The notes under the pieces are model-generated. The model searched no databases, had not been told where the DNA came from, and was given only the letters and a program-made list of their open reading frames with translations. Positions 2,370-51,782 of a stretch of DNA of 64,000 nucleotides are shown piece by piece (the first letter of the stretch is position 1; every line of letters starts with the position of its first letter). The translations under genes were made by a program, and so were the position numbers. Source of the stretch: Candidatus Latescibacterota bacterium (GTDB lineage: Bacteria > Latescibacterota > UBA2968 > GCA-2709665); contig OZ252100.1 in assembly GCA_965248435.1 (NCBI GenBank), positions 1,728,001-1,792,000 of the forward strand. The letters run 5' to 3'.

Positions 2370-2464
2370 AATTGCCCCTACAAGCCTGGCTGCATCCGAA
2401 CGCTCCCAATCAAGATTCGTTCCGAATCCGTGAAACCCCTTTTGCACATAAATCGGTGAAATGG

Positions 2465-2477
2465 GGAAAAAATTTCC
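2465..2477. promoter_or_regulatory. Putative enhancer (bEBP upstream activator site) GGAAAAAATTTCC
   Basis: Imperfect dyad starting 111 bp upstream of the -24 GG at 2576; recurs at the same distance before other blocks. Confidence 0.6.
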
Positions 2478-2574
2478 CAGAATTGCCATACATCTCTGCA
2501 GAACAAGGCATCCCCGATCCGCTTTAGCCGCTAGCTGCGGACCCGATCCCCAACTGGCTCCCGTGTATGAAATA

Positions 2575-2590
2575 TGGCATAAATCTTGCA
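2575..2590 (+). promoter_or_regulatory. sigma54 promoter, block A
   Basis: TGGCATAAATCTTGCA: GG-N10-GC, close to TGGCAC-N5-TTGCW. Confidence 0.8.
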
Positions 2591-2611
2591 TTATAACCAC
2601 CTTGCGTAAGC

Positions 2612-2638
2612 TAAACGTTCTAGAAAACAGGCCGATAT
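2612..2638 (+). promoter_or_regulatory. sigma28 (FliA/SigD) promoter, block A
   Basis: TAAA-N15-GCCGATAT with exact consensus spacing. Confidence 0.8.
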
Positions 2639-2912
2639 AAGAAATAGCAGGCACAGGTCTGTATCCACCCTGATCCATGCCCCTTAAATGGTCACGCCAT
2701 CCCACCACCGCCGTTCTCCAATTTGCCCAGAGGTTTGAACCCTGTCACACATTTTATCTCGAACAGTCGAATGGTACAGGGCCTTCCTCAGTGAGTATGC
2801 GGGGAAAAATTCCCATCTCATTCGTCTCTCGACCCTTTCGGAAAATCCACGATACACAGTCGTGTAGGTAGGTCTCTAGATGATCCGGCAGATTCGTCAG
2901 CGCGATCCCGCT

Positions 2913-3587
2913 ATGAAGAAGACTGTAGATTACTTCGACTCCATCGCTGAAGACTACAACTCTTGGTTGAATCCATTCGATCTGGCCGCGCGGCAGGTCT
3001 GGTTCGCCAAACAGCTTGACCTGTTCAAGTTGCACGGAGAAGTGGCACTCGATGTCGGCTGCGGAGTGGGACACTTTTCGCAGCTGGTGATGGAACGCGG
3101 AGGCACTCCGGTTCCTCTAGACATTGCTGGAAAGCTGCTCTCTAAAGTGAAATGTGAAATGTCTAATTGCATTCAAGGAAACTCGCTCAAACTACCGTTC
3201 AGGGACAACTCCTTTTCCCTTGTTATCTCCTCCGAGTGCATAGAGCACACACTGGAACCTTCTCAAGCGATACGAGAAATGGTCCGAGTCCTTCGTCGAG
3301 GAGGGGTCCTTGTTCTAAGCACGCCCAATCATGCCTGGCGATGGTCCATCTATATTGCCGAGACCCTGGGATTCCGAAAATTCGCGGGCATTGAAAACTG
3401 GCTTACGCGTCACCAAGTACGAAAAGTACTAACTGAATTCGGTACGGAAATCGTTGTGGATGAAGGACTCCACCTCTTTCCATTTCAGCTGCGCTTCCTG
3501 TGGCCCCTTCTCGCGCGGTTCAACAGGCTTGGCCAGTCTCTCCGACATTGGATGATCAATCAGTGCTGGGTCGCACGGAAACTGTAA
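2913..3587 (+). CDS. Class I SAM-dependent methyltransferase
   Basis: LDVGCGVG motif I, LPFRDNSFSLV, ECIEH, RVLRRGG; alternative start at 2880. Confidence 0.88.
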   Translation: MKKTVDYFDSIAEDYNSWLNPFDLAARQVWFAKQLDLFKLHGEVALDVGCGVGHFSQLVMERGGTPVPLDIAGKLLSKVKCEMSNCIQGNSLKLPFRDNSFSLVISSECIEHTLEPSQAIREMVRVLRRGGVLVLSTPNHAWRWSIYIAETLGFRKFAGIENWLTRHQVRKVLTEFGTEIVVDEGLHLFPFQLRFLWPLLARFNRLGQSLRHWMINQCWVARKL

Positions 3588-3608
3588 CAGATAGAAGGCG
3601 GTGTTTCT

Positions 3609-4391
3609 ATGAAGGTCGTTATTCTTTGTGGTGGTAAGGGCACACGTCTGCGTGAAGAGACGGGGTACCGTCCAAAGCCTATGGTGGAGATCGGCGGTCG
3701 CCCGGTCTTGTGGCACATCATGAAACTCTATGCGCACTATGGGTTCAATGACTTCATACTCTGCCTGGGTTACAAGGGAGAGGTTATCAAGGAATACTTT
3801 CTGAACTACCACACGATGAACAAGGATTTTACGATCAACCTGGGATTTCGAAAAGGAATCATGTTTCACGGCAATCATGACGAAGAGGACTGGAACGTCA
3901 CACTGGCGGATACCGGTGCTGAAGCGCTAACCACGGAACGAATCAATCGCGTTCGGCACCACATCGGAAGTGAGCCGTTCATGCTGACTTACGGGGATGG
4001 CGTTGCAGATCTGGACATCGGCAGGTTGGTGCGGTTTCATCGCTCCCAGGGTCGGCTCGCAACACTAACCGGGGTTCGAGACGCTTCCCGTTTCGGCGTT
4101 GTTCAGTCGAATGGCAACGGGCAGGTCACGAAATTCAAGGAAAAGCCGAACGTCCAGGAGCGGATCAACGCCGGATTTTTTGTCCTCGAGCCCGGTGTGT
4201 TTGACACCTTCGAGGGGCAGACCGGGATGCTGGAACAAAGCCTCCCTCCGCTCGCCGAAGCAAATCAACTCTCGATGTTTCCCCATGATGGGTTCTGGCA
4301 TTGCATGGACACCCATCGTGATTACCTGAAGCTGAATCAATTGTGGGATCAGGGAGATGCCCCCTGGGAAGTCTGGGAGGATGACCGTTGA
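3609..4391 (+). CDS. rfbF: Glucose-1-phosphate cytidylyltransferase
   Basis: MKVVILCGGKGTRLREET..PKPMVEIG, LTYGDGVAD, INAGFFV, GFWHCMDTHRD. Confidence 0.93.
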   Translation: MKVVILCGGKGTRLREETGYRPKPMVEIGGRPVLWHIMKLYAHYGFNDFILCLGYKGEVIKEYFLNYHTMNKDFTINLGFRKGIMFHGNHDEEDWNVTLADTGAEALTTERINRVRHHIGSEPFMLTYGDGVADLDIGRLVRFHRSQGRLATLTGVRDASRFGVVQSNGNGQVTKFKEKPNVQERINAGFFVLEPGVFDTFEGQTGMLEQSLPPLAEANQLSMFPHDGFWHCMDTHRDYLKLNQLWDQGDAPWEVWEDDR

Positions 4392-4441
4392 GGCTTGTTG
4401 ATGGGTGAAGCGTGATCGCTTGAATTGTGCAGGAGTCTGAA

Positions 4442-5488
4442 ATGAATATTCTCGTGACAGGTCATCTGGGTTACATCGGCAGTGTTTTGACGCGAGTCTT
4501 GCACCGCTGCGGGTACACGGTCGTAGGCCTCGACACAGGCTATTTTGCGGACTGCTACATTTCGGAAGATATGCAGTTCCCAGACCGGGAACTTCAGAAG
4601 GACCTCCGGTCCGTAGAGGTTGAGGACCTGAGAGGGATCGACGCCATAATCCACCTTGCGGCGCTCTCGAACGATCCGATGGGTGAGCTGAGCCCCGCTC
4701 TGACTGATGAAATCAACCATCTCGCCACAGTCCAGCTGGCCCAGAAGGCGCGAGAAGCGAACATATCCCGGTTCATTCTCTCCTCGTCCTGCAGCATATA
4801 CGGCGCTGCAAACGGAAGCGCCCCGCTTACAGAAGGTGCTCCGCTCAATCCAGTTTCGGCCTACGCGGAATCCAAGATCCGTGCCGAAGGAGGACTATGC
4901 TCCCTGGCGAATGAGCACTTTTCACCTGTATTTCTACGCAATGCAACGGCATACGGGGTCTCCCCCAGGTTCCGCTTCGATCTCGTCGTGAACAACCTTG
5001 TAGGATGGGCTCTGGCAACTGGAAACCTCCAGGTCAAAAGCGACGGCAGTCCCTGGCGCCCACTCATTCACGTGGAGGACATTTGCTGTGCCTGCGTCGC
5101 AGCCCTTGAGGCTCCAAAAGAGGCCATCCACGCTGAAGCCTTCAATGTCGGACAGGATTCCGAAAACTTCCAGGTTCGTGACATCGTGAAAACGATTCGA
5201 GAAACCATTCCCAGCCAGGTGGAATTCACGGGGGAGAACCAAGGAGATTCCAGAAGTTACCGTGTCTCCTTTCAGAAGATCAAAGATAGGCTTCCTGGAT
5301 TTCGGCCGAAGTGGACGCTGTCCGATGGGATTGAAGAGCTGTATCAGGCCCTTCGAGAAATAGATTTGGATCTCTTTAGAGACAGGAGATTCTCTCGCCT
5401 GGATCAACTTCAATACCTGATGGCATCAGACTATCTCAATACCGATCTGTTCTGGAAAGGTGAACCGGAGGTACTGGCACATGATTGA
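4442..5488 (+). CDS. NAD-dependent epimerase/dehydratase
   Basis: TGHLGYIG Rossmann motif, HLAALSNDP, SSCSIYG, YAESK, RNATAYG. Confidence 0.9.
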   Translation: MNILVTGHLGYIGSVLTRVLHRCGYTVVGLDTGYFADCYISEDMQFPDRELQKDLRSVEVEDLRGIDAIIHLAALSNDPMGELSPALTDEINHLATVQLAQKAREANISRFILSSSCSIYGAANGSAPLTEGAPLNPVSAYAESKIRAEGGLCSLANEHFSPVFLRNATAYGVSPRFRFDLVVNNLVGWALATGNLQVKSDGSPWRPLIHVEDICCACVAALEAPKEAIHAEAFNVGQDSENFQVRDIVKTIRETIPSQVEFTGENQGDSRSYRVSFQKIKDRLPGFRPKWTLSDGIEELYQALREIDLDLFRDRRFSRLDQLQYLMASDYLNTDLFWKGEPEVLAHD

Positions 5489-5930
5489 AGGGGTTCTGAT
5501 CGTCCCGCTTCGACAGATTCCGGACGAGCGCGGCAAGATCATGCACATGCTCCGCGCTGATTCCGACCACTACGAGAAGTTTGGAGAAATATACTTTTCG
5601 GTGGCCTATCCAGGAACTATCAAGGGATGGCACCGCCATACACGCCAGACCCAAAACTATGCCGTCGTATCGGGGATGATCAAACTCGTTCTGTTCGATT
5701 CGAGGGATAACTCGCCTACGAAAGGGGAATTGATGGAACTCTTCATCGGCGAGGATAACTACTGTCTGGTCAAGATTCCTCCCGGTATCACGAACGGGTA
5801 CAAGACATATGGCGTAAGACCGGCCTTCCTGGCCAACTGTGCAACGGAACCGCACGACTCGCAAGAGATGATTCGAATCGACCCCTTCTCTACCGAGATT
5901 CCATACGACTGGGCACTCAAAAATCGGTGA
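5481..5930 (+). CDS. NDP-4-keto-6-deoxysugar 3,5-epimerase family (RmlC-like cupin)
   Basis: DERG, KGWHRH, VLFDSRDNSPTKG, IPPGITNG. Confidence 0.88.
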   Translation: MIEGVLIVPLRQIPDERGKIMHMLRADSDHYEKFGEIYFSVAYPGTIKGWHRHTRQTQNYAVVSGMIKLVLFDSRDNSPTKGELMELFIGEDNYCLVKIPPGITNGYKTYGVRPAFLANCATEPHDSQEMIRIDPFSTEIPYDWALKNR

Positions 5931-6814
5931 CCGATGTGACGAAAGTGAAGAGAATACTGATAACAGGAGGTGCTGGGATGCTGGCATCCGACCTGGCGCG
6001 GCATTTCGCCAGCGGAGACCAGTACGAACCACTTCCACTCTCTCGCACAGACCTGGATGTCACAAACGCTGATGACGTGAACAGCACACTGGAGGATGCC
6101 AGACCAGATGTGCTCATTCACACTGCCGCGCTTCACGTCGACGCGTGCGAAAAGGATCCTGATAGGGCGTTTCAAGTAAATGCTTGGTCAGCAAGAGGAC
6201 TTGCGCTGGCTTGCCAGCGTCACGGGATCACCTTGGTGCAGATCAGCACTTGTGGTCTCTTCGGAGATGATTACAGGGCCTATACGGAATATGACACCGT
6301 CACGCTGAAGACGGTGTATGCTCGGTCAAAACACGCAGGAGATGACTTCGTTAGGAATCTCTGCGAACGCCATTTCGTTCTACGCCCCGGATGGCTCTTT
6401 GGGGGCAGTACTCGCCACCCGAAGAATTTTGTGGCCAGACGATACGAGGAAGCCCTGGGAAGCAACTGTGTTCAAAGCGCATCAGACAAACACGGATCAC
6501 CAACTTACTGTGCCGATCTGGCGATGGGAATCGAGACCCTTCTGGAGACGAAGGAGTACGGGACGTATCACCTGGCGAATTCGGGCGGATGTTCGCGGGC
6601 TGAATACGTCAAGCACATCTTCGAATGCTTCGGACTCACGACCGAGGTGGAAGAAGTCGATTCACGCCACTTTCCTCGCAATGCCGATGTGCCCGACTGT
6701 GAGATTCTTGACAGCCTTAACGTTCGGTTCTTGGGACTCAACCCTCTTCCGCCCTGGGAAGACGCGTTAGAACGATACATCCGATCCATCAACACGGAGG
6801 TCTGCGTTCAATGA
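5927..6814 (+). CDS. NDP-4-dehydro-6-deoxysugar reductase (RmlD-like)
   Basis: ITGGAGMLA, VDACE..P..AFQVNA, YARSK, GSPTY. Confidence 0.88.
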   Translation: MTDVTKVKRILITGGAGMLASDLARHFASGDQYEPLPLSRTDLDVTNADDVNSTLEDARPDVLIHTAALHVDACEKDPDRAFQVNAWSARGLALACQRHGITLVQISTCGLFGDDYRAYTEYDTVTLKTVYARSKHAGDDFVRNLCERHFVLRPGWLFGGSTRHPKNFVARRYEEALGSNCVQSASDKHGSPTYCADLAMGIETLLETKEYGTYHLANSGGCSRAEYVKHIFECFGLTTEVEEVDSRHFPRNADVPDCEILDSLNVRFLGLNPLPPWEDALERYIRSINTEVCVQ

Positions 6815-7749
6815 GTGTTGTGCCCGTTACGATTCTGATGACCGTGAGGAACGGTGAATCCTTTGTGGAAGAGACAGTGTCGAGCATTCTGAATCAGACG
6901 TTCGGCGACTTCAAATTCCTGATCCTCGACAATGCCTCGTCTGACCGTACCCGGGAGATCATTCGAAGTTATCGAGATCCCCGGATCGGACTTATCGCAT
7001 TAGAAAGAGATATTGGCCAGACTGCAGCGCTAAACCGTGGGTTGGCACTTTCGAACACGCCCTATGTCGCACGCACAGACGCGGATGACATATCGCATCC
7101 TGATCGGCTGCAGATCCAGATGGATTTCGCAACCAAACATCCCGAGATCGCACTTATAGGGACTTGGTACGAAATCATAGACTTCCGTGGGACGATAGTT
7201 TCCAAGCGAAGACCTCCCTGTAAGCCTGATCAACTTTCAAAGCAAATCCTGTTGGACAACCCGTTTGCGCATTCATCGGTGTTGCTCAATCGATTGAAGG
7301 CACTTGAGTGTGGCGGATACAATCCAGCATTCAGCTTCGCCCAGGACTATGCACTATGGATAGAAATGGCATCTGGCTCCCCGGCAGCTATCCTCCCTGA
7401 ATTTCTCGTTCAGATAAGGAGGCACGGGCAACGCTCTACTGCGGACCCTTCGGTAGCCTTTCAGCGTGCAAGGGAGGCGATGGTGGCCGTCTTGGGAAAG
7501 GCAAACCGTTCCGTGGACAGAGGAAAAGTAGAAGCTCACGCCTGCCTTCGGTACGCCACAGTCGCCAAGGACACTGGACAGGTGAAAGAATCTCTGAATT
7601 GGTTGAAGCACGGCATCTCTCAGCATCCGTCGATGCTATTCTACAAAATGCCTACCATAGCGCCTATTTTCCTTCGAGCGGTCGTTAGCGATAAAGGATT
7701 TACAGCCCTTCGAAGAGTGAGGCGTCTTTTTCTGCAGGGCACGGCCTGA
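6811..7749 (+). CDS. GT2 glycosyltransferase
   Basis: SILNQTF, LDNASSDRT, ALNRGL, DADD, HSSV, QDYALW. Confidence 0.9.
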   Translation: MSVVPVTILMTVRNGESFVEETVSSILNQTFGDFKFLILDNASSDRTREIIRSYRDPRIGLIALERDIGQTAALNRGLALSNTPYVARTDADDISHPDRLQIQMDFATKHPEIALIGTWYEIIDFRGTIVSKRRPPCKPDQLSKQILLDNPFAHSSVLLNRLKALECGGYNPAFSFAQDYALWIEMASGSPAAILPEFLVQIRRHGQRSTADPSVAFQRAREAMVAVLGKANRSVDRGKVEAHACLRYATVAKDTGQVKESLNWLKHGISQHPSMLFYKMPTIAPIFLRAVVSDKGFTALRRVRRLFLQGTA

Positions 7750-8111
7750 ATGAAGCCTACACAGCTGCCGAAGGGAATGAGAGTAGGCGTAACAGGGGCT
7801 AGAGGATTCCTGGGCCGGCATCTTCTTGACGCACTCCGAAGCCAGCCAGTCGCGTTAGTGTGTCTAGATGATGATGTTCGCTCATCTGATTCGCCCAAAC
7901 AGGATTTCGACATTTTATACCACCTAGCCGCCGTTCTTCCAGCAAGATTCAAAGAAGATCCAAAACTGAGCTTCTCAGTCAATGTGGACTGCACGCGGTT
8001 CCAGAAGCAAAGATTTTCGCGAAGTGTAAATTGATACAAGAGCAACTCGGATGGGAGCCCAGGATGAAATTTGAAGAAGGGCTGCTCGAGATGATGCGCT
8101 CAACGAAATGA
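7750..8111 (+). pseudogene. NAD-dependent epimerase with large internal deletion
   Basis: N-terminal VTGARGFLG...YHLAA...VNVDCT joined out of frame to a typical C-terminus QLGWEPRMKFEEGLLEMM* (stop 8109-8111); catalytic YxxxK region missing. Confidence 0.8.
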
Positions 8112-8142
8112 TCAACCTACACCCCTTTTATCCGGTTGTCAA

Positions 8143-8922
8143 ATGAAAACACTTCTCAAAAATACAATCGCCGGTGTGTTCGGTACTCTCGGATACGATT
8201 TACACGTAGCACGCAAAAATGGATCAAAAGACTGGGAGGTCTTCGATAAGTTCATTCTCTCCTCCTACTACAACAAGAACAAAATACGTGAAGCCTACAG
8301 TAAATCTCTCGAGCGCACCGGCATGGAGTGGTCTGACAATTTCTCCAAGCAATGCCGACATTACATCCTACATCAAATGGCCCAGCACGCCATTTCCAAC
8401 AAAGGTGACTTTGCAGAGTGTGGCTGCTGGAAAGGACAATCTGCCTACCTGATCGCGAGTATTCTCGAAGAGAACGAATTCGAAGGTGAGTTCCACATCT
8501 TCGATTCGTTCGAGGGATTGTCAGATCTGTCCTCGGATGATGGAAACGAAAGGCGGAAACTTACTCGGGTGGGAATGGAAGCGCAGAGGAAATGGTTCGA
8601 TTCGACGGAGGAGGAAGTCTCCAAGAACCTCTCTGAATTCGAATTCGTGACTCTCTACAAGGGCTGGATCCCGGATAGATTTTCAGAGGTTCGTGAGAAG
8701 ACATTCTCGTTTGTACATCTCGATGTAGACCTCTACCAACCCTATGTCGATTCCCTTAAATTCTTCTATCCCAGGTTGGTAGACGGCGGCGTCATCTGTT
8801 TGGACGATTATGGCCTCACCCAATTTCCTGGGGCGAAAGCGGCCCTTGAAGAGTTCCTTCGTGACAAGACTTATAACCTATTTCTTGAAATGCCGACGGG
8901 TGGCGCATTTCTCATCAAGTGA
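8143..8922 (+). CDS. TylF/MycF/NovP family sugar O-methyltransferase
   Basis: GDFAECGCWKG, FDSFEGL, YKGWIP, VHLDVDLY, GGVICLDDY. Confidence 0.9.
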   Translation: MKTLLKNTIAGVFGTLGYDLHVARKNGSKDWEVFDKFILSSYYNKNKIREAYSKSLERTGMEWSDNFSKQCRHYILHQMAQHAISNKGDFAECGCWKGQSAYLIASILEENEFEGEFHIFDSFEGLSDLSSDDGNERRKLTRVGMEAQRKWFDSTEEEVSKNLSEFEFVTLYKGWIPDRFSEVREKTFSFVHLDVDLYQPYVDSLKFFYPRLVDGGVICLDDYGLTQFPGAKAALEEFLRDKTYNLFLEMPTGGAFLIK

Positions 8923-8987
8923 CGTGGAATCGCGATGAAATCTGATCGCCTTCACAAACGCAATGAAGATCCGAAAGAGGAAACGCA

Positions 8988-10100
8988 ATGAATCTTGACT
9001 TTCTGCAGATCGGATTCCAAAAGTGTGCGACGACCTTTCTCGAAAACAACGTCTATCCCTACAATCCTGGCATTCACTGCATTCAAGCCGCGAACAATGT
9101 TGATCTGGAACGCTCTCTCCTGAGAAGCCTGATACTTCCTGATGGATTGGAGTTCAGCCAAAAACTCGCAAACGATTCCATTTCAAAAACTTGTAGTAAT
9201 TTGTTTAGCGATGAAACAGTAAATGGAATCATGTTCGAGTCATTCACATTTTCGTATCAGCGCAGGTTTGACCGTAAGAGTGTGATTGATAGGATAAACG
9301 ATACGTTTCCAGGCGTTAAGGTTATAACCTTCGTCAGAAATCAGAAAACATGGCTCTTAAGTCATTACTCTCAGTATGTGAAATCAGGCGGATTGTTATC
9401 GCTGCACGATTTCATCGAATGTTTCATTTCTAATCCATACATGGAAAGCCACCACATTGACTGGTATCCGTTAATCTCGTACCTACACGAAGTATTCGGT
9501 AAAGAGAGAGTTTTAGTCTGCCTCTATGAGGACTTGAAGGGTTCTCCGCAGGATGTTGCAGACCAGATCTTTTCATTCTTGGGTGTGCAATCTACAAAGA
9601 TAAATCCAGACGTTGTCAACCCATCCTTGAGCCGTTACGGTTTGGGACTGAAGAGAATGCTGAATCACTTTCTAAGGTCTGACAATGGGGAATCTAGTTA
9701 CACCTTCAGAAGGGATCCCTACGAATCCCAGCCATCCTTCTACTCCAGGCTTAAACACAAAGTGATCTATAAAGCCTACAAACCAATCACGCATAGAATG
9801 TGTTACAAATTTGACCAAGTGCTTAGGTTGCGCAAGAAGGTAGAATTGAACGATACTCAAATTCAGAGAATATATGACAGGTACTCGGAGAGTAATGAAA
9901 AGTTGTCTAAACTGCTGAATGTTGATTTGTCTGGATATGGGTATCCACTTCCTAGAAGTCAAGCCCCAGAAGTGCCAGGTCAGCGTAACGTCGCGGCTCC
10001 GATTCAGTCGGAAGCTGTCGGTTTAGTGCCAAGATTGCTGAACAAAGGATTTCAGTTCGAATCGGCCGATGAAGTCGTCCAGCTCCTTCAGAGCGATTGA
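8988..10100 (+). CDS. Sulfotransferase family protein
   Basis: 5'-PSB-like IGFQKCATT, 3'-PB-like FVRNQ..WLLSHY, LYEDLK, FLGV; last ~48 aa after YGYPLP look like read-through. Confidence 0.8.
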   Translation: MNLDFLQIGFQKCATTFLENNVYPYNPGIHCIQAANNVDLERSLLRSLILPDGLEFSQKLANDSISKTCSNLFSDETVNGIMFESFTFSYQRRFDRKSVIDRINDTFPGVKVITFVRNQKTWLLSHYSQYVKSGGLLSLHDFIECFISNPYMESHHIDWYPLISYLHEVFGKERVLVCLYEDLKGSPQDVADQIFSFLGVQSTKINPDVVNPSLSRYGLGLKRMLNHFLRSDNGESSYTFRRDPYESQPSFYSRLKHKVIYKAYKPITHRMCYKFDQVLRLRKKVELNDTQIQRIYDRYSESNEKLSKLLNVDLSGYGYPLPRSQAPEVPGQRNVAAPIQSEAVGLVPRLLNKGFQFESADEVVQLLQSD

Positions 10101-10287: not shown

Positions 10288-10300
10288 GGAAAAATCTTCC
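10288..10300. promoter_or_regulatory. Putative enhancer GGAAAAATCTTCC
   Basis: 113 bp upstream of the -24 GG at 10401. Confidence 0.6.
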
Positions 10301-10399
10301 TGAAATCGCCCCAGCGTCTCCTTGCTGTCCCCATCCGTCGTCCCCCTGACCCCGCCTGGCCACAGACTCAGCTCCCATTTCGTTCTGATGTACAAAATG

Positions 10400-10415: not shown

Positions 10416-10444
10416 ATATAACCACCTTAGAGCATTGTCAGAAC

Positions 10445-43077: not shown

Positions 43078-44345
43078 GCAACTCGACGGACATCCTCTAC
43101 GTCATTCCCCGTCCTGAGATTGGGGGCGCTGAACGTCTTCTCCTCACGCTCCTAAGGGGCCTGGATCGATCCCGATTCAGTCCCCACCTGATATGCCTCG
43201 ATGGATCGGGGAGCCTCCTCTCCGATTTCGAAGAGGTGACAGAAAGTGTCCATATCCTGCAACGCAGCCGGCCTGTGGACCCAAAGACACTTGGGGCCCT
43301 GGTGCGCCTTATGCGAGAGATTCGACCTGCGCTGGTTCACACCTATCTCTACATCGCAAACCTGTATGGCGGGTGGGGTGCACGTTTGGCCGGTGTACCC
43401 AAACTTGTTGTCTCTCAGTTCGGGCTCGGCATCGATCCGCAGCGTGGACGACTTAGATCATTACGAATGCGGGCACTCAACCTATTTATCGGACAGTTCT
43501 CAGATCGTCTCCTTGTCAACGCCGAAACGGTGGCCAGGCACATGTGGTTAGCCGGCTACCGTCCGGAGGACACCCGGGTCGTTTACAATGGTGTCGACGT
43601 TTCAAAACGTGCTTCGGAATCAAGGCGTGACGTCGTGCGTCGCGAACTGAACGTTCGGGACGATGAAATCCTCCTGGGTACGCTTTCGCGAATAGATCCC
43701 AAGAAAGATCTCGGCACCATGCTTCGAGCCGTCGCGCTGGCGGCCAGAACTTGCCCCAATATCCGACTCTTGATCTTGGCTGGCGGATTTTCGGAGTACT
43801 TGAGAGAACTCCGCGATCTTGCTCAGAAACTGGGGATTTCGGAGAAGGTCCACTTTCTCGACTTTCACCCTGATCCACTCACGATTCTCTCGACCTGCCA
43901 CATCTCTCTTCTGTCCTCCGTTACGGAAGGCCTTCCCAACGCTATACTCGAATCGATGCTTCTGAGCAAGCCTGTCGTGTCGACGAATGTCGGTGGAATT
44001 CCCGAGATCATAGAAAACGGTGTTGACGGCTGGCTCGTCCCTCCCAGAAATCCTGATCTCCTTGCCAAACGCATTGTGGATTTGATTCATAATCCTGGCC
44101 GTGCAATTCAAATGGGCGCAGCAGGAAGGAGAAAGGCGATGCGACATTTTACCGCCGACGCAATGATTCGGAATACCCAATCCGTCTATGAGGAGCTTCT
44201 CTTTCCTCCCTCTTCACGCTCAGGGACCACACCAACTCCGTCCGACCTTGTGTCCCTGGATACACCTCTCTTTACCGCGGCAAAATCGCCTGCAGCAAAC
44301 CGGAAAGTGCTTGAATCTTCGGATTCGGCAGTCATGGTCACCTGA
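43074..44345 (+). CDS. GT4 glycosyltransferase
   Basis: GGAER, VYNGVD, EGLPNAILESM, TNVGGIPE. Confidence 0.92.
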   Translation: MSNSTDILYVIPRPEIGGAERLLLTLLRGLDRSRFSPHLICLDGSGSLLSDFEEVTESVHILQRSRPVDPKTLGALVRLMREIRPALVHTYLYIANLYGGWGARLAGVPKLVVSQFGLGIDPQRGRLRSLRMRALNLFIGQFSDRLLVNAETVARHMWLAGYRPEDTRVVYNGVDVSKRASESRRDVVRRELNVRDDEILLGTLSRIDPKKDLGTMLRAVALAARTCPNIRLLILAGGFSEYLRELRDLAQKLGISEKVHFLDFHPDPLTILSTCHISLLSSVTEGLPNAILESMLLSKPVVSTNVGGIPEIIENGVDGWLVPPRNPDLLAKRIVDLIHNPGRAIQMGAAGRRKAMRHFTADAMIRNTQSVYEELLFPPSSRSGTTPTPSDLVSLDTPLFTAAKSPAANRKVLESSDSAVMVT

Positions 44346-44351
44346 GTCCAA

Positions 44352-45311
44352 ATGTCTGACCGTCCTATCAGTGTGCTTGTTGTCACTAGCATTTATCCGA
44401 CGAAGGAAGATCCTGGCCTCGGTGCTTTTGTCTCTTCCCAGATAGAATCACTAAGGAAGGCCGGACTGAAAGTCGATATCCTCTTTCTTGATGCACGCCG
44501 CTCCAAGTGGGAGCTTCTGAAGGGTATTTCACGAATTCGCAGGCTTACCGCTTCAGGCGACTATGACCTGATTCACGCTCATTTCGGTTACAACGGAATC
44601 CCCGCCTGCTTTGAACGCAGACTGCCGCTCGTCATTTCATTTTGCGGGACCGATCTCACGCATCCTCGCTTCCGTCCAATCTCGCAATGGGTCGCCCGTC
44701 GAGCCGACGCCGCCATCGTAAAGTCCGAAGGGTTACATCGTTTGCTCGGATGTTCAGCTTCGGTCATCCCCAACGGTGTGGAGCTGGCTCGGTTCCGTCC
44801 CACACGAAAGGAGGAGGCAAGGCGGATTCTGGGTCTGCGTGAGGATGTCCGATATGTTCTCTTTGTAGGAAATCCTAAGCGTCCGGAGAAGCGGTACGAT
44901 CTTGCTCAGGGGGTTGTAGCACGAGCCCGACGATCGGGCATCCCGTTCGAGCTCCTTGTGTTGAACAAACAGCCTCACCAGGAAGTGCCCAACTTTCTCA
45001 ACGCCGCCGACGTCTTGCTCATCACATCCAGCTATGAGGGTTCGCCCAACATCGTCAAAGAAGCGATGGCATGCAATCTTCCCATCGTAAGCACGGACGT
45101 CGGAGACGTTCGAAAGATATTGGCGAACACTCGGGATTGTATGGTGGACGATGCTATCCCAGAATCACTCGCGAATGGTCTCGTCTCCGTGACCCGAAAT
45201 GGGACACGGTCGAACGGGCGTTCCCACATCACGCATCTCTCTTCTGATGCGATCGCATCGCAAGTAATTGGCGTCTACCGCCGAGTACTTGAAGCAAGAG
45301 GCCGCGCATGA
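44352..45311 (+). CDS. GT4 glycosyltransferase
   Basis: IHAHFG, IPNGV, EKRYDLA, EGSPNIVKEAMAC. Confidence 0.9.
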   Translation: MSDRPISVLVVTSIYPTKEDPGLGAFVSSQIESLRKAGLKVDILFLDARRSKWELLKGISRIRRLTASGDYDLIHAHFGYNGIPACFERRLPLVISFCGTDLTHPRFRPISQWVARRADAAIVKSEGLHRLLGCSASVIPNGVELARFRPTRKEEARRILGLREDVRYVLFVGNPKRPEKRYDLAQGVVARARRSGIPFELLVLNKQPHQEVPNFLNAADVLLITSSYEGSPNIVKEAMACNLPIVSTDVGDVRKILANTRDCMVDDAIPESLANGLVSVTRNGTRSNGRSHITHLSSDAIASQVIGVYRRVLEARGRA

Positions 45312-46489
45312 GACTCGCGATGGTCGCACACACCTATTATCCACACGACGTTCGGGTGCGCCGTGAATGTGATGCCCTAGGCGACAGAGGAGATCGCGTA
45401 GACCTGATTTGTTTGAGAGATCAGGGAGAGCAGTCTTCTGAACGGATCGGCAACGTCACGGTTCACCGGCTCCCAATCCAACACGCCAGAGGTCAGGGAC
45501 AGGCCGCTTACATCCGAGAATACCTCGGTTTCTTTCTGCGCTCGTTCGCCCTCCTAACCCGGCTGTTCATCAGACATCGATATCCGATCGTGCAGGTTCA
45601 CAACCTCCCCGATTTCCTTGTCTTCGTCACCCTGATCCCAAAAATCCTTGGGGCCCGCGTGCTCCTGGACATGCACGACGTCACACCTGAGCTTTTTCAA
45701 TCGCTCTACGGAACATCGCAGTCAAGCCTCAAATTCGGCCTTCTCCGATTTGTAGAGCAAGTGAGCCTTGCATATGCCGACGCTGTCCTGACAGTAAATC
45801 GAAATATCCGCGACCTCTTTCTTGCGCGAAATCCCATAGCCCACAAGATAGAGGTCGTCATGAACGCCCCGGATCCCAGGTACTTTGATTCCTGTGGGTC
45901 CGGGGCGTCCTCCCCAAACGGTCACTTCAGACTCATTCACCACGGTCAGATCATTCGAAGGTATGACTTCGAAGTCGCCCTGGAAGCAGTCAGCATCGCC
46001 AGAGACAGAATTCCAGATCTTCGATTGGACATTTACGGGGACGGTGAAGCTTCCTATATCCGCGAACTTCTCGGGATCGTGGATTCAAGCGGCCTGAGCC
46101 GGTGCGTCAGGTTTCACAAACGCGTTCCCCTCGAGCAGGTCCCGGGGTTGATTCGGAGCGCCGATATCGGAATTGTGCCGTGTAAGCGTGATGTATTCGT
46201 AGATCAGGTCATGCTCCCTGTGCGCCTCCTCGAATACGTTGCCAGCGGTCTCCCGGCCGTGGTCTCCAGGGTTGGGACCGTCGAAGCATATTTCGACGAC
46301 GAGGAAGTTGCCTACTACCCACCCAGCGATCCCGATGCACTCGCCAACCGTATCGTCGAGCTCTACTCCGACCCACAGCGCCGGCTGGATATGGCCACAC
46401 GAGCCAAAAATACCTTCCGTATTTACGAATGGCCTCGTATGAAACTACGCTATTACAACGTCATCGATTCACTCGCGAAAATCAGGTGA
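45308..46489 (+). CDS. GT4 glycosyltransferase
   Basis: DVRVRRE, HNLPD, DMHD..PE, PVRLLEYVASGLP. Confidence 0.88.
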   Translation: MRLAMVAHTYYPHDVRVRRECDALGDRGDRVDLICLRDQGEQSSERIGNVTVHRLPIQHARGQGQAAYIREYLGFFLRSFALLTRLFIRHRYPIVQVHNLPDFLVFVTLIPKILGARVLLDMHDVTPELFQSLYGTSQSSLKFGLLRFVEQVSLAYADAVLTVNRNIRDLFLARNPIAHKIEVVMNAPDPRYFDSCGSGASSPNGHFRLIHHGQIIRRYDFEVALEAVSIARDRIPDLRLDIYGDGEASYIRELLGIVDSSGLSRCVRFHKRVPLEQVPGLIRSADIGIVPCKRDVFVDQVMLPVRLLEYVASGLPAVVSRVGTVEAYFDDEEVAYYPPSDPDALANRIVELYSDPQRRLDMATRAKNTFRIYEWPRMKLRYYNVIDSLAKIR

Positions 46490-46496
46490 GGAAGCC

Positions 46497-48134
46497 GTGG
46501 TTCTGCCTCAGAGGAAAACACTGCCGCTCGTTCTCTTGTTGGGGTTCGCTGCATTCATTTATATGAGTGCACTTACTCAGGGCGAGCGTCTCTTCGACAA
46601 TGACTACGACTGGATCTCCCAAGCACAGAGCGACTGGTCTGAGATCCTACAGGACATCTTCAGGCCGATGCCGCGAGACTGGGGATTTCAGAACCGGCCC
46701 CTGCAAGTTCTCTGCTTCAAAATGATCTACACGTTCTTTGGATACGACCCCGGACCCTACTATGCCTTCAAATGCTTCCTGTTCGCCCTCGTGACGTGTG
46801 GGATCTGTGTCTTTTGCCTCGGGCTGGGGTTCGGGCGTGCCGTCGGCTTTACTTCGGCAGCGATCTTTGCACTGTCGAGCCCGGTATTCTCCAGCACACT
46901 CTGGGTCTCAGACTTTGAGCTCCTTGCTCAGCTCTTCATTCTGTCTGCCTTCAGTTGCTTCCTCTTCTTGGAGAATCATCGTTGCTTCGAAGAAAACCGA
47001 GTGAAGTTCTACCTCCTTCAGGGTTTCACTTTGCTCTTTGCCATCTTAGGACACGCCGCCAAGGGGAGTGCGAAAATCGTTCCATTTGTCGTGTTGGGTT
47101 TCCTTTTGGTCTACAATCGACGACACGTAAAACGTCACCTTCTGCTTGTTATCCTGATTCTACTGACGATCGTTCCCCTCGTTCAACTCCTCGATGATCC
47201 AATTCCCCCTTTCGCCCCGTTCTCCGAGGATCAGTCAAACGGTTGGATGTGGAGACCGGCAAATTTGACTACCCTCCACATCCTCATTTTTGGAGACGTC
47301 AACATCCTCAGCGGAAGTGATGATTTTGCCTACAGTCTTTTGGGCGCCTTCTCCCCTGTCCTCTTGTGGAGTCTGGTCGTGGCGGCAGCCTTCCTCTTCT
47401 ACATACGTCGTTGGCCCTCAGCGCAAAGCACCCAGATTAGGCGTAGCATTGTTTTCTGCTCGATTTGGCTGGCCGTTGTCATCGTCTCTCTTTCCGCATT
47501 CCCCAGACTGCCATACGAATTCATGTCCCGATATGTCACCGTCGTCCTCGTTCCAGCCAGCGTGCTCACAGCGATCATTCTCGTTCACGCTGTAGCACTC
47601 ACGCCTGAACGCGTAAGGCGATATGCCGGCGGACTGCTCTTGCTCGTAATTCTAGGACATAGCATCATCAACTTCGGCCACGTCCGGCATACGCGCGAGT
47701 ATCTCGGTCAGATCATGATCTCCTATGACCGGGCACGAACGTCCATTTCAGAGACCATACAGAATGCGACAGTCTTCCTCCTCGACTATACGTTCAGCTA
47801 CAACCGTCCACTGGGGGATGGAAATCTCTACGTCAAAAATCGTGGGTGGCCGCACGAGGCAGACCTTTCGCGTCCGCTATACGTGCTGGCCCATCACGAT
47901 GGCGACATTGAAAACATCGACTACGACCCGGTCGTGAAAAAGATCTCGAAGCCCCTTCAGCTGCTGTCCAACAACGGATCCCAGGTCCGAATCGGCATTC
48001 GTCCGATCCGGGTCTTCCACAGTTTGACGGATGGGTTCTACGATCGTTGGATCTATGGCAGGTCGGAATCGATCATGTCTGTTCTCTTTCACGTCGTCCT
48101 CGAACCTCACGACCCCCAAAAGGCGCTAAAATGA
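46497..48134 (+). CDS. Multi-TM membrane protein, probable GT-C fold glycosyltransferase
   Basis: TM1 followed by acidic DNDYDW loop and RPL motif, about 11 hydrophobic segments, late RY motif. Confidence 0.55.
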   Translation: MVLPQRKTLPLVLLLGFAAFIYMSALTQGERLFDNDYDWISQAQSDWSEILQDIFRPMPRDWGFQNRPLQVLCFKMIYTFFGYDPGPYYAFKCFLFALVTCGICVFCLGLGFGRAVGFTSAAIFALSSPVFSSTLWVSDFELLAQLFILSAFSCFLFLENHRCFEENRVKFYLLQGFTLLFAILGHAAKGSAKIVPFVVLGFLLVYNRRHVKRHLLLVILILLTIVPLVQLLDDPIPPFAPFSEDQSNGWMWRPANLTTLHILIFGDVNILSGSDDFAYSLLGAFSPVLLWSLVVAAAFLFYIRRWPSAQSTQIRRSIVFCSIWLAVVIVSLSAFPRLPYEFMSRYVTVVLVPASVLTAIILVHAVALTPERVRRYAGGLLLLVILGHSIINFGHVRHTREYLGQIMISYDRARTSISETIQNATVFLLDYTFSYNRPLGDGNLYVKNRGWPHEADLSRPLYVLAHHDGDIENIDYDPVVKKISKPLQLLSNNGSQVRIGIRPIRVFHSLTDGFYDRWIYGRSESIMSVLFHVVLEPHDPQKALK

Positions 48135-49837
48135 ACGTTCTCGGTATCCACGACGGCAAAGACGCCGGGGTATGTCTTCTGGTTGATGGGCGTCCCGTCT
48201 ACGCGGCGAATGAAGAACGATTCTCGCGAAAGAAGCTCCACTTTGGGTTCCCGTTTCTTTCCCTTCGCGATTTGATGGAGACCACGGGCGTCCGACCTCG
48301 GGAAATCGACCGAGTCAGCATCGGGTTCGAGGCCATGGTCGAGACAGAGGACTATCCCATCTATCGCGACATCGATGACGCCACACTCATTCAAAAGATC
48401 TTTGCAGGCACCGCGAGGCTTCTCGGTCCCGTGACCGCATCGAGGGCGTTCGTAGATGCCTCCAAACAGGTGCTCGCCTTTCTTAGCAGCAACAAGCAGG
48501 TCCTTCAAAAGTCCCTCAGGGAGTTCGGTATCGCGGCCCCGATCGAGTTTGTTGATCACCATCGAAGTCACGCCGCGTCGGCCTACTATACCTCCGGCTT
48601 TGGAGACGCCCTCATCGTCACGGCAGACGGAGGCGGCGACGGCCTCGCAGGAAGCATCTATACGGGGCGCGACGGAAAGCTGAATGCGCTCTCGGAATGG
48701 CCGCGCGTCCACTCCCCCGGGAATTTTTGGTTCCTGATTACCTATATCTGTGGTTTCAATCCGATCAAGCACGGCGGGAAGATCACTGGCTTGGCTGCAT
48801 ACACCGTGAGCGAAGAGGCTCACAGGGTCCTTTCCGAATTCTACGGCTACGATCCAGTCAACCTTTGCTTCGTCAACAAGAAGCATCTCCTGTTCAGGGA
48901 TGCCCACGTCGCGCTCCGGAATGCACTGGAAGGGTTTACGATCGAAGAAATCGCCTACGGTGCCCAGAAAGTCCTTGAAGACACAATGTTAGGCGTGATG
49001 CGGGCGGCGGTCGCGCGCACAGGGCTCTGCCGTGTTGCGCTGGCGGGTGGCACCTTCGCCAACGTTCGCTTGAATCAGAAAATCCTGGAATTGGACGGTG
49101 TCGAAGAGATCTTTGTCCATCCGCACATGGGTGACGGGGGTGTCGCTTTAGGCTCTGCGCTCAACGTGACCTCACGCATTACCGGCCTGCGACCTTATGC
49201 TATCGGGGATGTCTACTGGGGAAATGCTGCGCCGAATCGAACCATCCAGAAAACCCTAGAGAGTAGTCCTGTGGCTGTAAGGGAGCTACGCGACCCCGCG
49301 GATGAGATCGCCGATGCGCTCGCCCAAAAGAGAGTGGTAGGTCTTTTCAACGGCCGTATGGAATTTGGACCACGAGCCCTCGGCCATCGGTCCATTCTTG
49401 CGGAACCGACGGATCCCACGATGATGGACTGGCTCAACAAGCGGCTCGAGCGGACGGAGTTCATGCCCTTTGCCCCCATCATCATGGAGGAGGATGCACC
49501 GCTCTACTTCAAGAATCTCGATCCGGGGCGTTTAGCCGCGCGTTTTATGACGGTCTGCTTCGACGTAACAGATCACGGAAAGAAGATGGCACCAGGCATC
49601 GTCCACAAAGACGGCACAGCGAGACCGCAGATCGTCAATGCGGCACATAATCGCTATGTATACGATGCCTTGAAAAAGCACAAGCAGAAGACCGGACTGT
49701 CACTGGCAATCAACACGAGCTTCAACAAACACGAAGAGCCGATCGTCTGTCACCCCAGGGATGCGGTGCAGGAACTTCTTCGAGGGGGCGTAGATGTGCT
49801 ATTTATCGAAGATTACAAAGTGGAGAGGCAGACGTAA
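48131..49837 (+). CDS. Carbamoyltransferase (NodU/CmcH family), second paralog
   Basis: NEERFSR.K, HHRSH, DGGGD, GKITGLAA, GRMEFGPRALGHRS, VHKDGTARPQ, NTSFN. Confidence 0.94.
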   Translation: MNVLGIHDGKDAGVCLLVDGRPVYAANEERFSRKKLHFGFPFLSLRDLMETTGVRPREIDRVSIGFEAMVETEDYPIYRDIDDATLIQKIFAGTARLLGPVTASRAFVDASKQVLAFLSSNKQVLQKSLREFGIAAPIEFVDHHRSHAASAYYTSGFGDALIVTADGGGDGLAGSIYTGRDGKLNALSEWPRVHSPGNFWFLITYICGFNPIKHGGKITGLAAYTVSEEAHRVLSEFYGYDPVNLCFVNKKHLLFRDAHVALRNALEGFTIEEIAYGAQKVLEDTMLGVMRAAVARTGLCRVALAGGTFANVRLNQKILELDGVEEIFVHPHMGDGGVALGSALNVTSRITGLRPYAIGDVYWGNAAPNRTIQKTLESSPVAVRELRDPADEIADALAQKRVVGLFNGRMEFGPRALGHRSILAEPTDPTMMDWLNKRLERTEFMPFAPIIMEEDAPLYFKNLDPGRLAARFMTVCFDVTDHGKKMAPGIVHKDGTARPQIVNAAHNRYVYDALKKHKQKTGLSLAINTSFNKHEEPIVCHPRDAVQELLRGGVDVLFIEDYKVERQT

Positions 49838-49867
49838 GGAGGCGTGTGAGGAGACGAGCGGCTCGGA

Positions 49868-51709
49868 ATGATTCAGACCCGAAAGCACATTCCACAAATC
49901 CTCCTGGTTTCCGCATTCGCCATTGTCGCGTTCAGATGTGCCTGGGTAACAGATGACGCCTACATCACCTTCAGAACGGTTGACAACCTCATTCACGGAT
50001 ATGGACTTACGTGGAACACCGCTGACAGGGTTCAAACCTATACCCATCCCCTGTGGTTGCTTCTTTTTGCTTCCGTCTATTTCTTCACACACGAGGCATT
50101 CTACTCCAGCATATTTCTCTCCCTCTTCGTTTCAATCGCGGGCTTCTCGATATTCGTATTCGGTTTAACCTCCAACTTCAGATCGGCTCTTCTTGGTGCT
50201 CTGCTCCTTACAAGCTCAAAGGCGTTCGTAGATTACTCCACCTCCGGTCTGGAGAACCCGCTTTCCCACCTGATACTCGCCCTCTTTCTCTATTTCTACT
50301 TTAGGCGGTCCAGAAGTCGATCGACCCTCGTGCCCCTCTCGCTCCTCGCTTCTCTGGGAGCGTTAGCCAGGCTCGACCTCCTGCTCGTCTTCTTCCCATG
50401 CCTTGTCCATGCATTCCTGGCATCGCCCAAATGTGATAGAAAACCTGCGCTGATCGCCGGAGTCCTTCCCCTGATGTTCTGGGAGTTTTTCTCGATCGCT
50501 TACTACGGTTTTCTCTTCCCAAATACCGCCTACGCAAAACTGAATACCGGCATTGAGGGCTTCGAGCTTGCCGAGCAGGGCCTCTATTACCTATGGAATT
50601 CGCTTACGATGGACCTCATTACGCTGCCAACGATCGCGGTCGGAATTTCCCTCTCGCTTGCGAATAGGTCGTGGAAACACATCTCAGTCGCAGCAGGTTG
50701 CCTGCTGTATCTTGGGTATGTCGTGACTATCGGCGGCGATTTCATGAGCGGTCGGTTTCTGACTGTGCCCCTCTTCTGCTGCGCGACGCTGATCGCGAGA
50801 AGCGCCTTTTCGGAGCAAAGGCTCTGGATCCCATCGGCAAGTACGGCGCTTCTGGTCGGGCTCTTGTCTCCCTATACGCCTTTACTCAGCGGCGCTGATT
50901 ACGGAACGAAATCCGGAGCGGTGCGCGACAGAGGCATCGAGGACCAACGCGGATTTCTCTACCGGCACGCGGGCCTTCTGAACAGGAACGGGATCGGCGA
51001 ACCGACACATCATTGGGTAAGCGACGGTCTGGAGGCAAAACGTCAAGCGCCGTGTCTGGCAACTGAAGGTGCAGTAGGATATTATGGGTATTATGCAGGA
51101 CCCGAGGTACACGTCCTCGATGTAAATGCCCTAACGGATCCTCTTTTGGCGAGGATGCCTGCCTTTAGTCAGGTGGATTGGCGGATCGGTCACTTCGTGA
51201 GGAAGATCCCACCAGGATACAAAGAAACACTACTTTACGGACAAAATTACATCAGGGACGCAAAACTTGGAGAGTACTTCGATAAGCTGAGACTAATAAC
51301 GCGAGGGGACATCTTCGATGGGGACCGATGGGCTGAAATCTGGAATGTAAACAGCGGGCAGTATGATCATCTGTTGAACTTCGAGGCCTACAGACATCAA
51401 TACATTGGCCATCGGCTTGCAAAGCACGGCAGAAAGAAGGAAGCCTTGCGCATGCTCAAAACTTCAATTTCATCAGACACGACGCGTGCAGACGGCTGGT
51501 ATGTTACTGCAACGATTTGTCTGAAGGCGGGAGAGCTCGATAAAGCCCTTGATGCGCTAACCAGGGCAATCCAACTCGACCCGCTGCAGAACGTTTATCG
51601 GGACCAGCTCATTAATCTCGGCAGGGCCTACTACGCGGAAGGCCGCATCGATACAGCGCTGGCCATATACGACGAATTTCAAAGATTGAAAGCAATGCAG
51701 CCAAGATAG
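49868..51709 (+). CDS. AftB-like (arabinofuranosyltransferase-type) GT-C protein with C-terminal TPRs
   Basis: DDAYITFR, YTHPLW, TSGLENPL, PNTAYAK, GGDFMSGRF, LTDPLLAR, RIGH; TPR-like end (ALDALTRAIQLDP, NLGRAYY). Confidence 0.75.
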   Translation: MIQTRKHIPQILLVSAFAIVAFRCAWVTDDAYITFRTVDNLIHGYGLTWNTADRVQTYTHPLWLLLFASVYFFTHEAFYSSIFLSLFVSIAGFSIFVFGLTSNFRSALLGALLLTSSKAFVDYSTSGLENPLSHLILALFLYFYFRRSRSRSTLVPLSLLASLGALARLDLLLVFFPCLVHAFLASPKCDRKPALIAGVLPLMFWEFFSIAYYGFLFPNTAYAKLNTGIEGFELAEQGLYYLWNSLTMDLITLPTIAVGISLSLANRSWKHISVAAGCLLYLGYVVTIGGDFMSGRFLTVPLFCCATLIARSAFSEQRLWIPSASTALLVGLLSPYTPLLSGADYGTKSGAVRDRGIEDQRGFLYRHAGLLNRNGIGEPTHHWVSDGLEAKRQAPCLATEGAVGYYGYYAGPEVHVLDVNALTDPLLARMPAFSQVDWRIGHFVRKIPPGYKETLLYGQNYIRDAKLGEYFDKLRLITRGDIFDGDRWAEIWNVNSGQYDHLLNFEAYRHQYIGHRLAKHGRKKEALRMLKTSISSDTTRADGWYVTATICLKAGELDKALDALTRAIQLDPLQNVYRDQLINLGRAYYAEGRIDTALAIYDEFQRLKAMQPR

Positions 51710-51737
51710 TTCACACTCCGATCATTCGAGCTGATAC

Positions 51738-51782
51738 AAAAAGGAGCTGTCCCGGTCCCATGACCAGACGGCTCCTTTTTTT
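51738..51782. terminator. Bidirectional intrinsic terminator closing the island
   Basis: AAAAA-GGAGCTGTC...GACGGCTCC-TTTTTTT between convergent genes. Confidence 0.88.

Follow-up and report, generated by a model that had tools for sequence, protein, structure and literature searches.

We analyzed a 64,000-nucleotide stretch of the genome of a Candidatus Latescibacterota bacterium (assembly GCA_965248435.1, contig OZ252100.1, here called C1, positions 1,728,001 to 1,792,000; hereafter the window), which holds five blocks of an island of glycan-synthesis genes, and found it very probable, judging from the sequence, that this island is co-regulated with the flagellum. The underlying regulatory architecture, a promoter cassette with an enhancer-like box, a sigma54 site and in most blocks a sigma28 site, is on this evidence real and conserved. 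We further propose, with a rough probability of 0.55, that the flagellar cascade drives the synthesis of a lipid-linked glycan, which would be transferred to exported surface proteins and give a motile-stage coat or sheath. About 2% of the genome, serving a membrane-assembled glycan, appears to be wired block by block into the flagellar cascade and to be kept or lost with the flagellum. An earlier sequence-only reading of the window had described five blocks over about 50 kb; the five blocks are present, but the whole island spans about 110 kb with nine sigma54-headed blocks. It starts at C1:1,670,749, about 57 kb before the window, and nearly all of its genes lie on one strand. The genome (G000) has 5.67 Mb and is 97% complete, and most of the closest relatives of its fliM (79-88% identity) are titled Ca. 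Latescibacterota.

Genes were predicted with a simple custom caller (4806 on C1), and the resulting set of 2407 upstream regions is approximate; some of the 26 regions assigned to the island are missed gene starts. The five sigma54 sites that the sequence-only reading had listed were found on the coding strand at 2575, 10400, 16743, 29145 and 36988, as were its four sigma28 sites at 2612, 10445, 29191 and 36931. The GG-N10-GC pattern by which it had described the former is uninformative alone, as it matched 1541 of 2407 upstream regions versus 1522 after shuffling. The fuller pattern GGYA-N6-TTGC occurred in 93 of the 2407 regions, compared with 17.9 after shuffling, and in nine of the 26 island regions, where 300 shuffles gave a mean of 0.17 and a maximum of 2; elsewhere it was present in 84 of 2381 regions (Fisher p = 2e-7). 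A strict sigma28 pattern was likewise found in 19 of 2407 regions (1.5 after shuffling) and in five of the 26 in the island (mean 0.03, maximum 1 in 300 shuffles), compared with 14 of 2381 elsewhere (Fisher p = 1e-6). We also scored all regions with matrices trained on sites outside the island, the sigma28 training set including five flagellin genes and flgM, which bear the same sigma28 motif as the island. The window sites ranked high among the 2407 regions: 24, 28, 91, 58 and 26 for sigma54, and 16, 17, 34 and 21 for sigma28, each in the order of the positions above. Both signals coincided in 17 regions, seven of them in the island. A second glycan locus of 90 kb (C1:4,255-4,345 kb) provides a negative control for the enrichment, given that none of its 37 upstream regions carried the sigma54 or the sigma28 motif.

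The idea that the motifs arose by chance, or through the copying of a single duplicated stretch, can draw on the background frequency of the loose motif and on the promoters at 2575 (block A) and 10400 (block B), which are not independent because they are duplicates (216 of 289 aligned bases identical). It is refuted by the enrichment, which holds against shuffled sequence as well as against the remainder of the genome, and by the conservation of the cassette in six genomes although the intergenic DNA no longer aligns by BLAST. A BLAST search with promoter A against 40 relatives gave no match; only the duplicate in G000 was found. The sigma54 site precedes the sigma28 site in blocks A, B and D, but the order is reversed in block E, where the sigma28 site (36931) lies before the sigma54 site (36988). 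Of the six long gaps of the sequence-only reading, five do carry sigma54 sites, while the sixth (7750-8142) is, from its translation read by eye, the remnant of an epimerase-like gene. The decay that it had seen in the block C sigma28 site was borne out, as two relatives (G045 and G004) keep this site intact or nearly so at the orthologous block.

Consistent with the cascade it had proposed, the genome encodes one FliA above the cut-off, one RpoN and FlgM, together with a flagellar-type activator. Twelve more sigma70 paralogues of about 290-335 residues, at 12 loci across C1, score under the FliA cut-off. Outside the window, at C1:1,720,420-1,720,461, the -35 element of a sigma28 site directly overlaps the -12 element of a sigma54 site, so that two polymerases would exclude each other there. 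We also searched for the tandem arrangement more widely. A loose tandem pattern matched in all 41 genomes of our panel, mostly by chance, and was used only to locate sites; a strict sigma54-then-sigma28 pattern gave at least 119 matches in metagenomes. We fetched 80 of these loci, left out 6 and collapsed the rest to 58 patterns, 50 of which had a following open reading frame (ORF). Flagellar or chemotaxis genes made up 12 of these 50 first ORFs and sugar-pathway genes two; thus, in this sample, the tandem is a common flagellar arrangement that rarely heads glycan genes.

The cassette is found in relatives well beyond the genus. The same locus in G004, which belongs to another genus, holds an island of about 77 kb with five cassettes, and G008 has five cassettes over two contigs. 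In G045, from another family, we listed five sigma54 sites and a sigma28 site at the block C orthologue, although this list was filtered by score, box or sigma28 and is partly selected. Across six genomes, the sigma28 -10 hexamer follows 18 of 20 promoters other than that of block E and, in block E, lies before the promoter in all six cases. Block E and the flanks of the island are stable, whereas its middle differs from genome to genome.

By aligning the nine island promoters of G000, we found a palindromic box with the sequence GGAA-N5-TTCC, which lies 108-154 nt before the sigma54 site. Since the box was first seen in G000, its island is no independent test. Therefore, we listed the island sigma54 promoters of G004 and G008 (n = 10) without regard to the box. 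All ten carried it with at most one mismatch in the eight fixed positions, seven of them with none. A matrix built from these ten promoters found an upstream match in eight of the nine G000 island promoters, in nine of 110 other sigma54 promoters and in seven of 730 non-sigma54 regions. In the ninth island promoter, that of block E, the box lies downstream, at +153 to +157 in six genomes from two families. Enhancers downstream of the start are known for Vibrio FlrC (PMC6504787; statements on this and the other papers cited for comparison refer to the accessible parts of their texts). Further carriers of the box are one flagellin gene, flgF, flgB (weaker, in G000 and G008), one gene for a giant secreted protein and several sigma54 promoters of genes with no flagellar annotation. 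The box also stands before the operon that encodes a PAS kinase together with a REC-AAA-HTH activator (C1:4,057,291), where it is kept in G000, G004 and G008 at -111 to -113. Orthologues of this activator (65-78% identity) occur in only six of 40 relatives (G004, G005, G008, G036, G037 and G038), and in G004, G008 and G038 they lie 3-7 kb from flgB. We infer that GGAA-N5-TTCC is a putative activator-binding site common to island and flagellar sigma54 promoters, and we regard the REC-AAA-HTH protein as the best candidate activator. Its HTH presumably resembles that of FlbD, which we treat as a lead only; the FlbD and FlgR models matched the activator below the cut-off, and our literature search found no paper on the FlbD/ftr consensus. 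The consensus we assume for integration host factor matched three of the nine promoters with zero or one mismatch, a figure without background comparison. Elsewhere in the genome (C1:2,390,300-2,390,720), a 59-residue ORF of no known family is headed by the box, a sigma54 site and a top-ranked sigma28 site.

Next, we compared the distribution of the island with that of flagella. Most profiles were made on 41 genomes (G000 and 40 relatives) and those of FlhA and the island marker on 53, in the same order. The marker, a block E carbamoyltransferase, was found in 13 of the 53 genomes and FlhA in 11, all of which are among the 13. In one of the other two (G041), flhA is split over contig ends and fliA is present. 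The other (G038), a complete genome, has no flhA, a broken fliA and a deletion between the fliK and flhG positions (C1:4,510,001-4,530,000 of that genome), which removes hook, motor and export genes. Its island is reduced to about 12 kb of partly broken genes. Assembly error is possible in this genome, but the lineage is apparently losing both motility and the island. The complete genome of G001, from the same genus as G000, has neither. Given that SprA was found in 41 of 41 genomes, type IX secretion was not lost together with flagella and island. Co-regulation with the flagellum is thus well supported by the regulators, the flagellin-like sigma28 motif, the common box, conservation and co-distribution.

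We also considered a reading in which sigma54 does control the island, but as part of a broader regulon for the envelope or a life stage. The sigma28 sites would then be minor, and the co-distribution would result from genes being lost together in lineages that are non-motile and possibly host-associated. The box-bearing sigma54 promoters of genes with no flagellar annotation, the confinement of the losses to few lineages, the weakness of the island sigma28 sites relative to those of flagellins and the lost site of block C would fit such a regulon. However, orthologous blocks retain their sigma28 sites across genera and families, flgB, flgF and a flagellin gene bear the box, the island and the flagellum decay in parallel in G038, and the metagenomic tandem heads flagellar and chemotaxis genes. 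We therefore consider a wider regulon very unlikely.

A further element, CCATCCC, was found in 19 of 26 leaders of six genomes versus 20 of 1391 background regions, on the sense strand and at variable distance; genome-wide it shows no strand bias (54 sense, 53 antisense). Antitermination by a NusG paralogue was considered, but only one NusG was found, so that CCATCCC is no obvious ops-type element. Whole-length duplex folding against a nearby sigma28 small RNA, run without a control, was uninformative. The CCAUCCC leader signal might add an undescribed post-initiation control, and, given the single NusG, the repeated internal promoters may replace antitermination.

In the window, all island features lie on the plus strand. 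Block A is preceded by the box (2465-2477, score 19.5, 108 nt upstream of the sigma54 site), the sigma54 -24/-12 site (2575-2590), the sigma28 site (2612-2638) and CCATCCC (2697-2703), and at 2880-10100 encodes methyltransferases, glucose-1-phosphate cytidylyltransferase, epimerases/reductase, a GT2 glycosyltransferase, a sulfotransferase and the epimerase remnant. The duplicate promoter of block B (10288-10537) has its box at 10288-10300 and CCATCCC at 10531, and heads a methyltransferase-GT2 protein, a methyltransferase, a GT-C protein (PMT_2), a cytidylyltransferase and a GT4 (10659-16565). The block C promoter (16632-16819) comprises a box at 16632-16644, the decayed sigma28 site at 16786 and CCATCCC at 16797 and 16813. 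Its block (17031-28986) encodes an HldE-like protein, an epimerase, two DegT aminotransferases, a split transketolase, a dehydrogenase, a C-methyltransferase and a WbuC cupin; a 75-nt tandem duplication, with copies 76% identical, lies at an aminotransferase gene start (19561-19710). Block D has a promoter without CCATCCC (28989-29218, box at 28989-29001) and encodes methyltransferases, GT2, GT-C and an asparagine-synthase-like amidotransferase (29388-36848). The block E promoter (36931-37152) contains CCATCCC at 37034 and 37068 and the downstream box at 37140-37152. Block E itself (37169-51709), the conserved core, encodes two carbamoyltransferases, an LPG-synthase-type membrane protein, an AglJ-like GT2, three GT4 and GT-C proteins. 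Altogether, the window blocks hold CDP-sugar and amino-sugar enzymes, many methyltransferases, the sulfotransferase, the two carbamoyltransferases, GT2/GT4 enzymes and several GT-C proteins.

The upstream blocks begin with a small unannotated ORF with one hydrophobic segment after the first promoter (C1:1,670,820-1,671,100), the start of which is conserved in G004, G008 and G045. They encode PseB, PseI, NeuB and NeuC above the cut-offs, a LegC-family aminotransferase, a split PseC, DUF4910 and NAT-FkbH proteins, WbuX amidotransferases (above cut-off), transferases weakly like the O-antigen families LIC13510 and PFTS (below cut-off) and an ABC transporter closest to the HepA and MsbA models (below cut-off). 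Two 327-residue HTH_38 transposase ORFs lie inside the island (L013:8728-9711 and L014:3793-4776), which we take to be IS30-like. Several genes are split or truncated, through decay or assembly error: the initiating transferase (61460-62856), a methyltransferase (30159-30420), the epimerase (7750-8142) and pseC (C1:1,677,759-1,678,897).

This content raises the question of the acceptor. Flagellar control may be right while the acceptor is the flagellum itself, with the island or its Pse/Leg blocks feeding cytoplasmic glycosylation of flagellin or hook by GT-TPR enzymes. The Pse, Neu and LegC-type genes and the DUF4910 and NAT-FkbH cassette point in this direction, and two soluble GT2-TPR enzymes are encoded in the flg-fliD cluster about 100 kb away, not in the island. 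One flagellin gene, among eight flagellin-family genes of which one is in the FlgL position, lies with fliL 20 kb before the island, with housekeeping genes between, and the order is the same in G004 and G008. The middle parts of the flagellins contain 15-34% serine and threonine, and a precedent is known (PMC3120886, PMC4020848). However, no match to PF01973 (Maf-type) was found in the genome, where the control matched only in archaea and no Maf-bearing control was included; the G004 island, which is complete, showed no Pse orthologue; and the conserved core is of membrane type (GT-C, AglJ-like and flippase-like). Membrane-type glycan enzymes act outside the cytoplasm, off the route of type-III-exported flagellin. 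The one paper found that concerns a lipid carrier for glycosylating flagellin (PMC3931799) carries a retraction mark. We therefore consider flagellin rather unlikely as the acceptor. The view of the sequence-only reading that the target may be something other than flagellin is favored by the absence of a Maf match, the separate GT-TPR enzymes in the flagellin cluster and the transferase-like and secreted-protein neighbors of the island, while the Pse/Leg-type genes inside it tell in the other direction. The readings can mix, and the Pse/Leg blocks may also feed flagellin.

Just past fliM lie the genes for an initiating transferase, eight Wzy_C-TPR proteins and three large proteins with type-IX-like C-termini. 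The first Wzy_C-TPR gene, of eight up to C1:1,830,000, is at 59077-61413 on the minus strand, and its product has a WaaL fold and is a candidate oligosaccharyltransferase. The initiating polyprenyl-phosphate sugar transferase (61460-62856, minus strand) is split over two frames in the assembly, whereas relatives have it whole, as single ORFs of 465-481 residues. With 25 candidates scored per genome, the Wzy_C-TPR family gave 8-11 matches in each of seven of the 41 genomes and none in the rest. The predicted fold of one member matched WaaL (7tpj) with a Z score of 23.6 and a root-mean-square deviation of 4.4 over 345 aligned residues. All 19 aligned members contain the Wzy_C domain and the catalytic Arg/Arg/His (R186/R188, R280, H327). 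Of the PglL residues, mapped by eye to PMC3643930, Asn and GxG were found in 19 of 19, Pro in 18, His in 13 and Glu in none, and PglL_A was not among the 25 of 33 families shown for these proteins. The S-layer transferase WsfB likewise combines Wzy_C with a C-terminal TPR, and genes of the PglL type are often neighbors of their targets (PMC2943079, PMC3643930). A phmmer search with the membrane part of the transferase found no PDB chain, Foldseek results were filled by TPR matches, and an Atlas search led to an unnamed cluster of 62 members.

G000 encodes four paralogous giant proteins of about 1,700 residues, which share 55-62% identity and one of which is split; the family was found in the same seven of 41 genomes as the Wzy_C-TPR family. 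The TIGR04183 sorting domain was detected in two of the four giants tested (40 bits, cut-off 23), and SprA_N, of the type IX translocon, scored above its cut-off in G000. One giant paralogue has a sigma54 site and the box in G000, G004, G008 and G038; the next has a sigma28 site that is intact in G038, present at the matching position in G008 and decayed in G000; and a third has a strict sigma28 site. This split mirrors that of the flagellins, one of which has a sigma54 promoter and five sigma28. Within C1:4,229,756-4,345,000, the third and fourth paralogues stand just before the second glycan locus, which is without flagellar motifs. The predicted fold of the first 1000 residues of a giant (pLDDT 68, pTM 0.47) matched only generic immunoglobulin (Ig) chains, with TM scores of 0.08-0.14 and with mastigoneme and S-layer proteins among the matches; this provides no evidence. 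D-S/T-x sequons are not clearly enriched in three of four giants (13 versus 9.8, 10 versus 10.5 and 13 versus 10.3), and the fourth, of 1282 residues, has 15 versus 6.8.

LpxC, LpxB and WaaA were not found in G000, where controls matched, and LpxC was absent from all 41 genomes. The lineage, with SprA in every genome, is apparently without lipopolysaccharide (LPS) yet equipped with type IX secretion, and an LPS O-antigen is unlikely to be the island product because these genes were not found. We also weighed a lipid-anchored or free polysaccharide under flagellar control, such as a non-LPS glycolipid of outer membrane or sheath or a motility slime, with the Wzy_C-TPR proteins acting as polymerases or lipid ligases. 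The O-antigen-like transferases and WbuX, the HepA/MsbA-like ABC transporter and a pair of MBOAT and SGNH-like genes would suit such a product. In addition, simple comparison of sequences does not tell WaaL from PglL (PMC3643930), and the Vibrio sheath is outer membrane (PMC6504787). However, in addition to the missing LPS genes, the TPR tail and the adjoining secreted proteins fit protein O-transferases (PMC2943079, PMC3643930), and 8-11 paralogues suggest many acceptors. Therefore, we regard a polysaccharide product as unlikely.

For the proposed coat or sheath, we infer the following course from motifs and gene content. Each island block would be read from the repeated cassette within the flagellar programme of motile Latescibacterota. 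A flagellar enhancer-binding protein would bind GGAA-N5-TTCC about 110-150 nt upstream, or downstream in block E, and open the sigma54 promoter; after export of FlgM, FliA would keep most blocks on through the second promoter. The enzymes would then build a heavily decorated lipid-linked oligosaccharide, using the initiating transferase, soluble glycosyltransferases and an ABC or Wzx-type flippase, and side groups would be attached in the periplasm by GT-C enzymes. As a lipid A-core acceptor is missing, the neighboring Wzy_C-TPR enzymes may transfer the glycan to proteins that are exported, among them most likely the giant Ig-rich proteins secreted by the type IX system and encoded next door. 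The outcome would be a coat of glycoprotein on the swimming cell or on its flagellum.

Several observations weigh against this proposal. The island sigma28 sites score lower than those of the flagellins, the box is missing at fliM and its match at fliO of G000 is weak, and the candidate activator is the one profiled among about 21 sigma54 activators. The flagella-less genomes fall in few lineages (G001, g2, g3 and g6), which may have lost many genes together. The PseB/PseI, NeuB/NeuC and DUF4910/FkbH genes serve flagellin glycosylation elsewhere. We detected no flagellar promoter for the Wzy_C-TPR array itself, and its members do not keep the PglL-specific glutamate and match Wzy_C_2 in only two of 19 cases. 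The initiating-transferase operon has a sigma54 site without the box, and the gene is split in the G000 assembly. A bolder version is possible but doubtful: a second structure of the flagellar cascade in an LPS-less two-membrane lineage, namely a coat or sheath of type-IX-secreted proteins of about 1,700 residues, glycosylated with the island glycan by 8-11 dedicated oligosaccharyltransferases and subject to post-initiation control through CCAUCCC.

In Helicobacter pylori, the intermediate flagellar class is under sigma54 plus sigma28, and HP0366 is PseC. This class includes HP0366/HP0367, so that sugar-pathway genes lie within the sigma54/sigma28 hierarchy as they do here (PMC2864241); there, however, few genes and cytoplasmic flagellin glycosylation are involved, rather than nine cassettes over 110 kb, mostly membrane-type glycan genes and an enhancer box. 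Flagellin glycosylation islands described in Pseudomonas aeruginosa and Shewanella oneidensis are likewise variable sugar clusters tied to flagella, with PseB-type genes and flagellin nearby, and sit among flg/fliC genes (nine ORFs in PA103) (PMC4020848, PMC3120886). The Latescibacterota island is about ten times larger, has GT-C and flippase genes and no Maf match, and its flagellin cluster has glycosyltransferases of its own. The FlrA/FlrBC/FliA system of Vibrio cholerae shares a kinase with a REC-type activator, one sigma54 flagellin, several sigma28 flagellins and downstream-capable enhancers, but no glycan island appears in its classes as described in the accessible text, and the Vibrio sheath consists of LPS (PMC6504787), whereas we found no LPS genes in G000. 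Our locus resembles the S-layer O-glycosylation loci known from Paenibacillus alvei (WsfB) and Geobacillus (WsaB), together with PglL-type transferases, in a Wzy_C and TPR transferase, an initiating transferase, ABC export, methyltransferases, an asparagine-synthase homologue and target genes nearby; those systems have one transferase, and the accessible texts do not mention flagellar control, whereas here we find 8-11 paralogues, type-IX-secreted candidates and flagellar promoters (PMC2943079, PMC3643930). The hormogonium polysaccharide of Nostoc is also a glycan made for a motile stage (PMC6495340).

Flagellar regulons with a few sugar genes for flagellin glycosylation are thus already known. 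A literature search of sources outside subscription journals found no paper on a Latescibacterota glycan island or lineage feature, nor did it reveal a counterpart for the size of the island, its repeated cassette of enhancer, sigma54 and sigma28 sites, the membrane-type pathway, the array of transferases or the setting without lipid A genes. If the proposal is true, it points to an envelope made for the motile stage by bacteria in which we found no lipid A genes, and it would link flagellar control, type IX secretion and protein glycosylation. It yields candidates that are testable with no culturing of the organism: the enhancer sequence, the activator and the acceptor proteins.

Beyond the island, a strong sigma54 site without the box heads a four-gene plus-strand operon (52285-55708) with genes for an LpoB-family lipoprotein and an outer-membrane beta-barrel-like protein. 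The site is also present in G004, G037, G038 and G042, and the products are candidate flagellar periplasmic parts. An Rfam search of the window gave no matches. The stand-alone fliM (56528-57712, minus strand), for which the sequence-only reading had also noted a sigma54 motif, has that site at 57712-57697 on the minus strand, ranked 29 of 2407.

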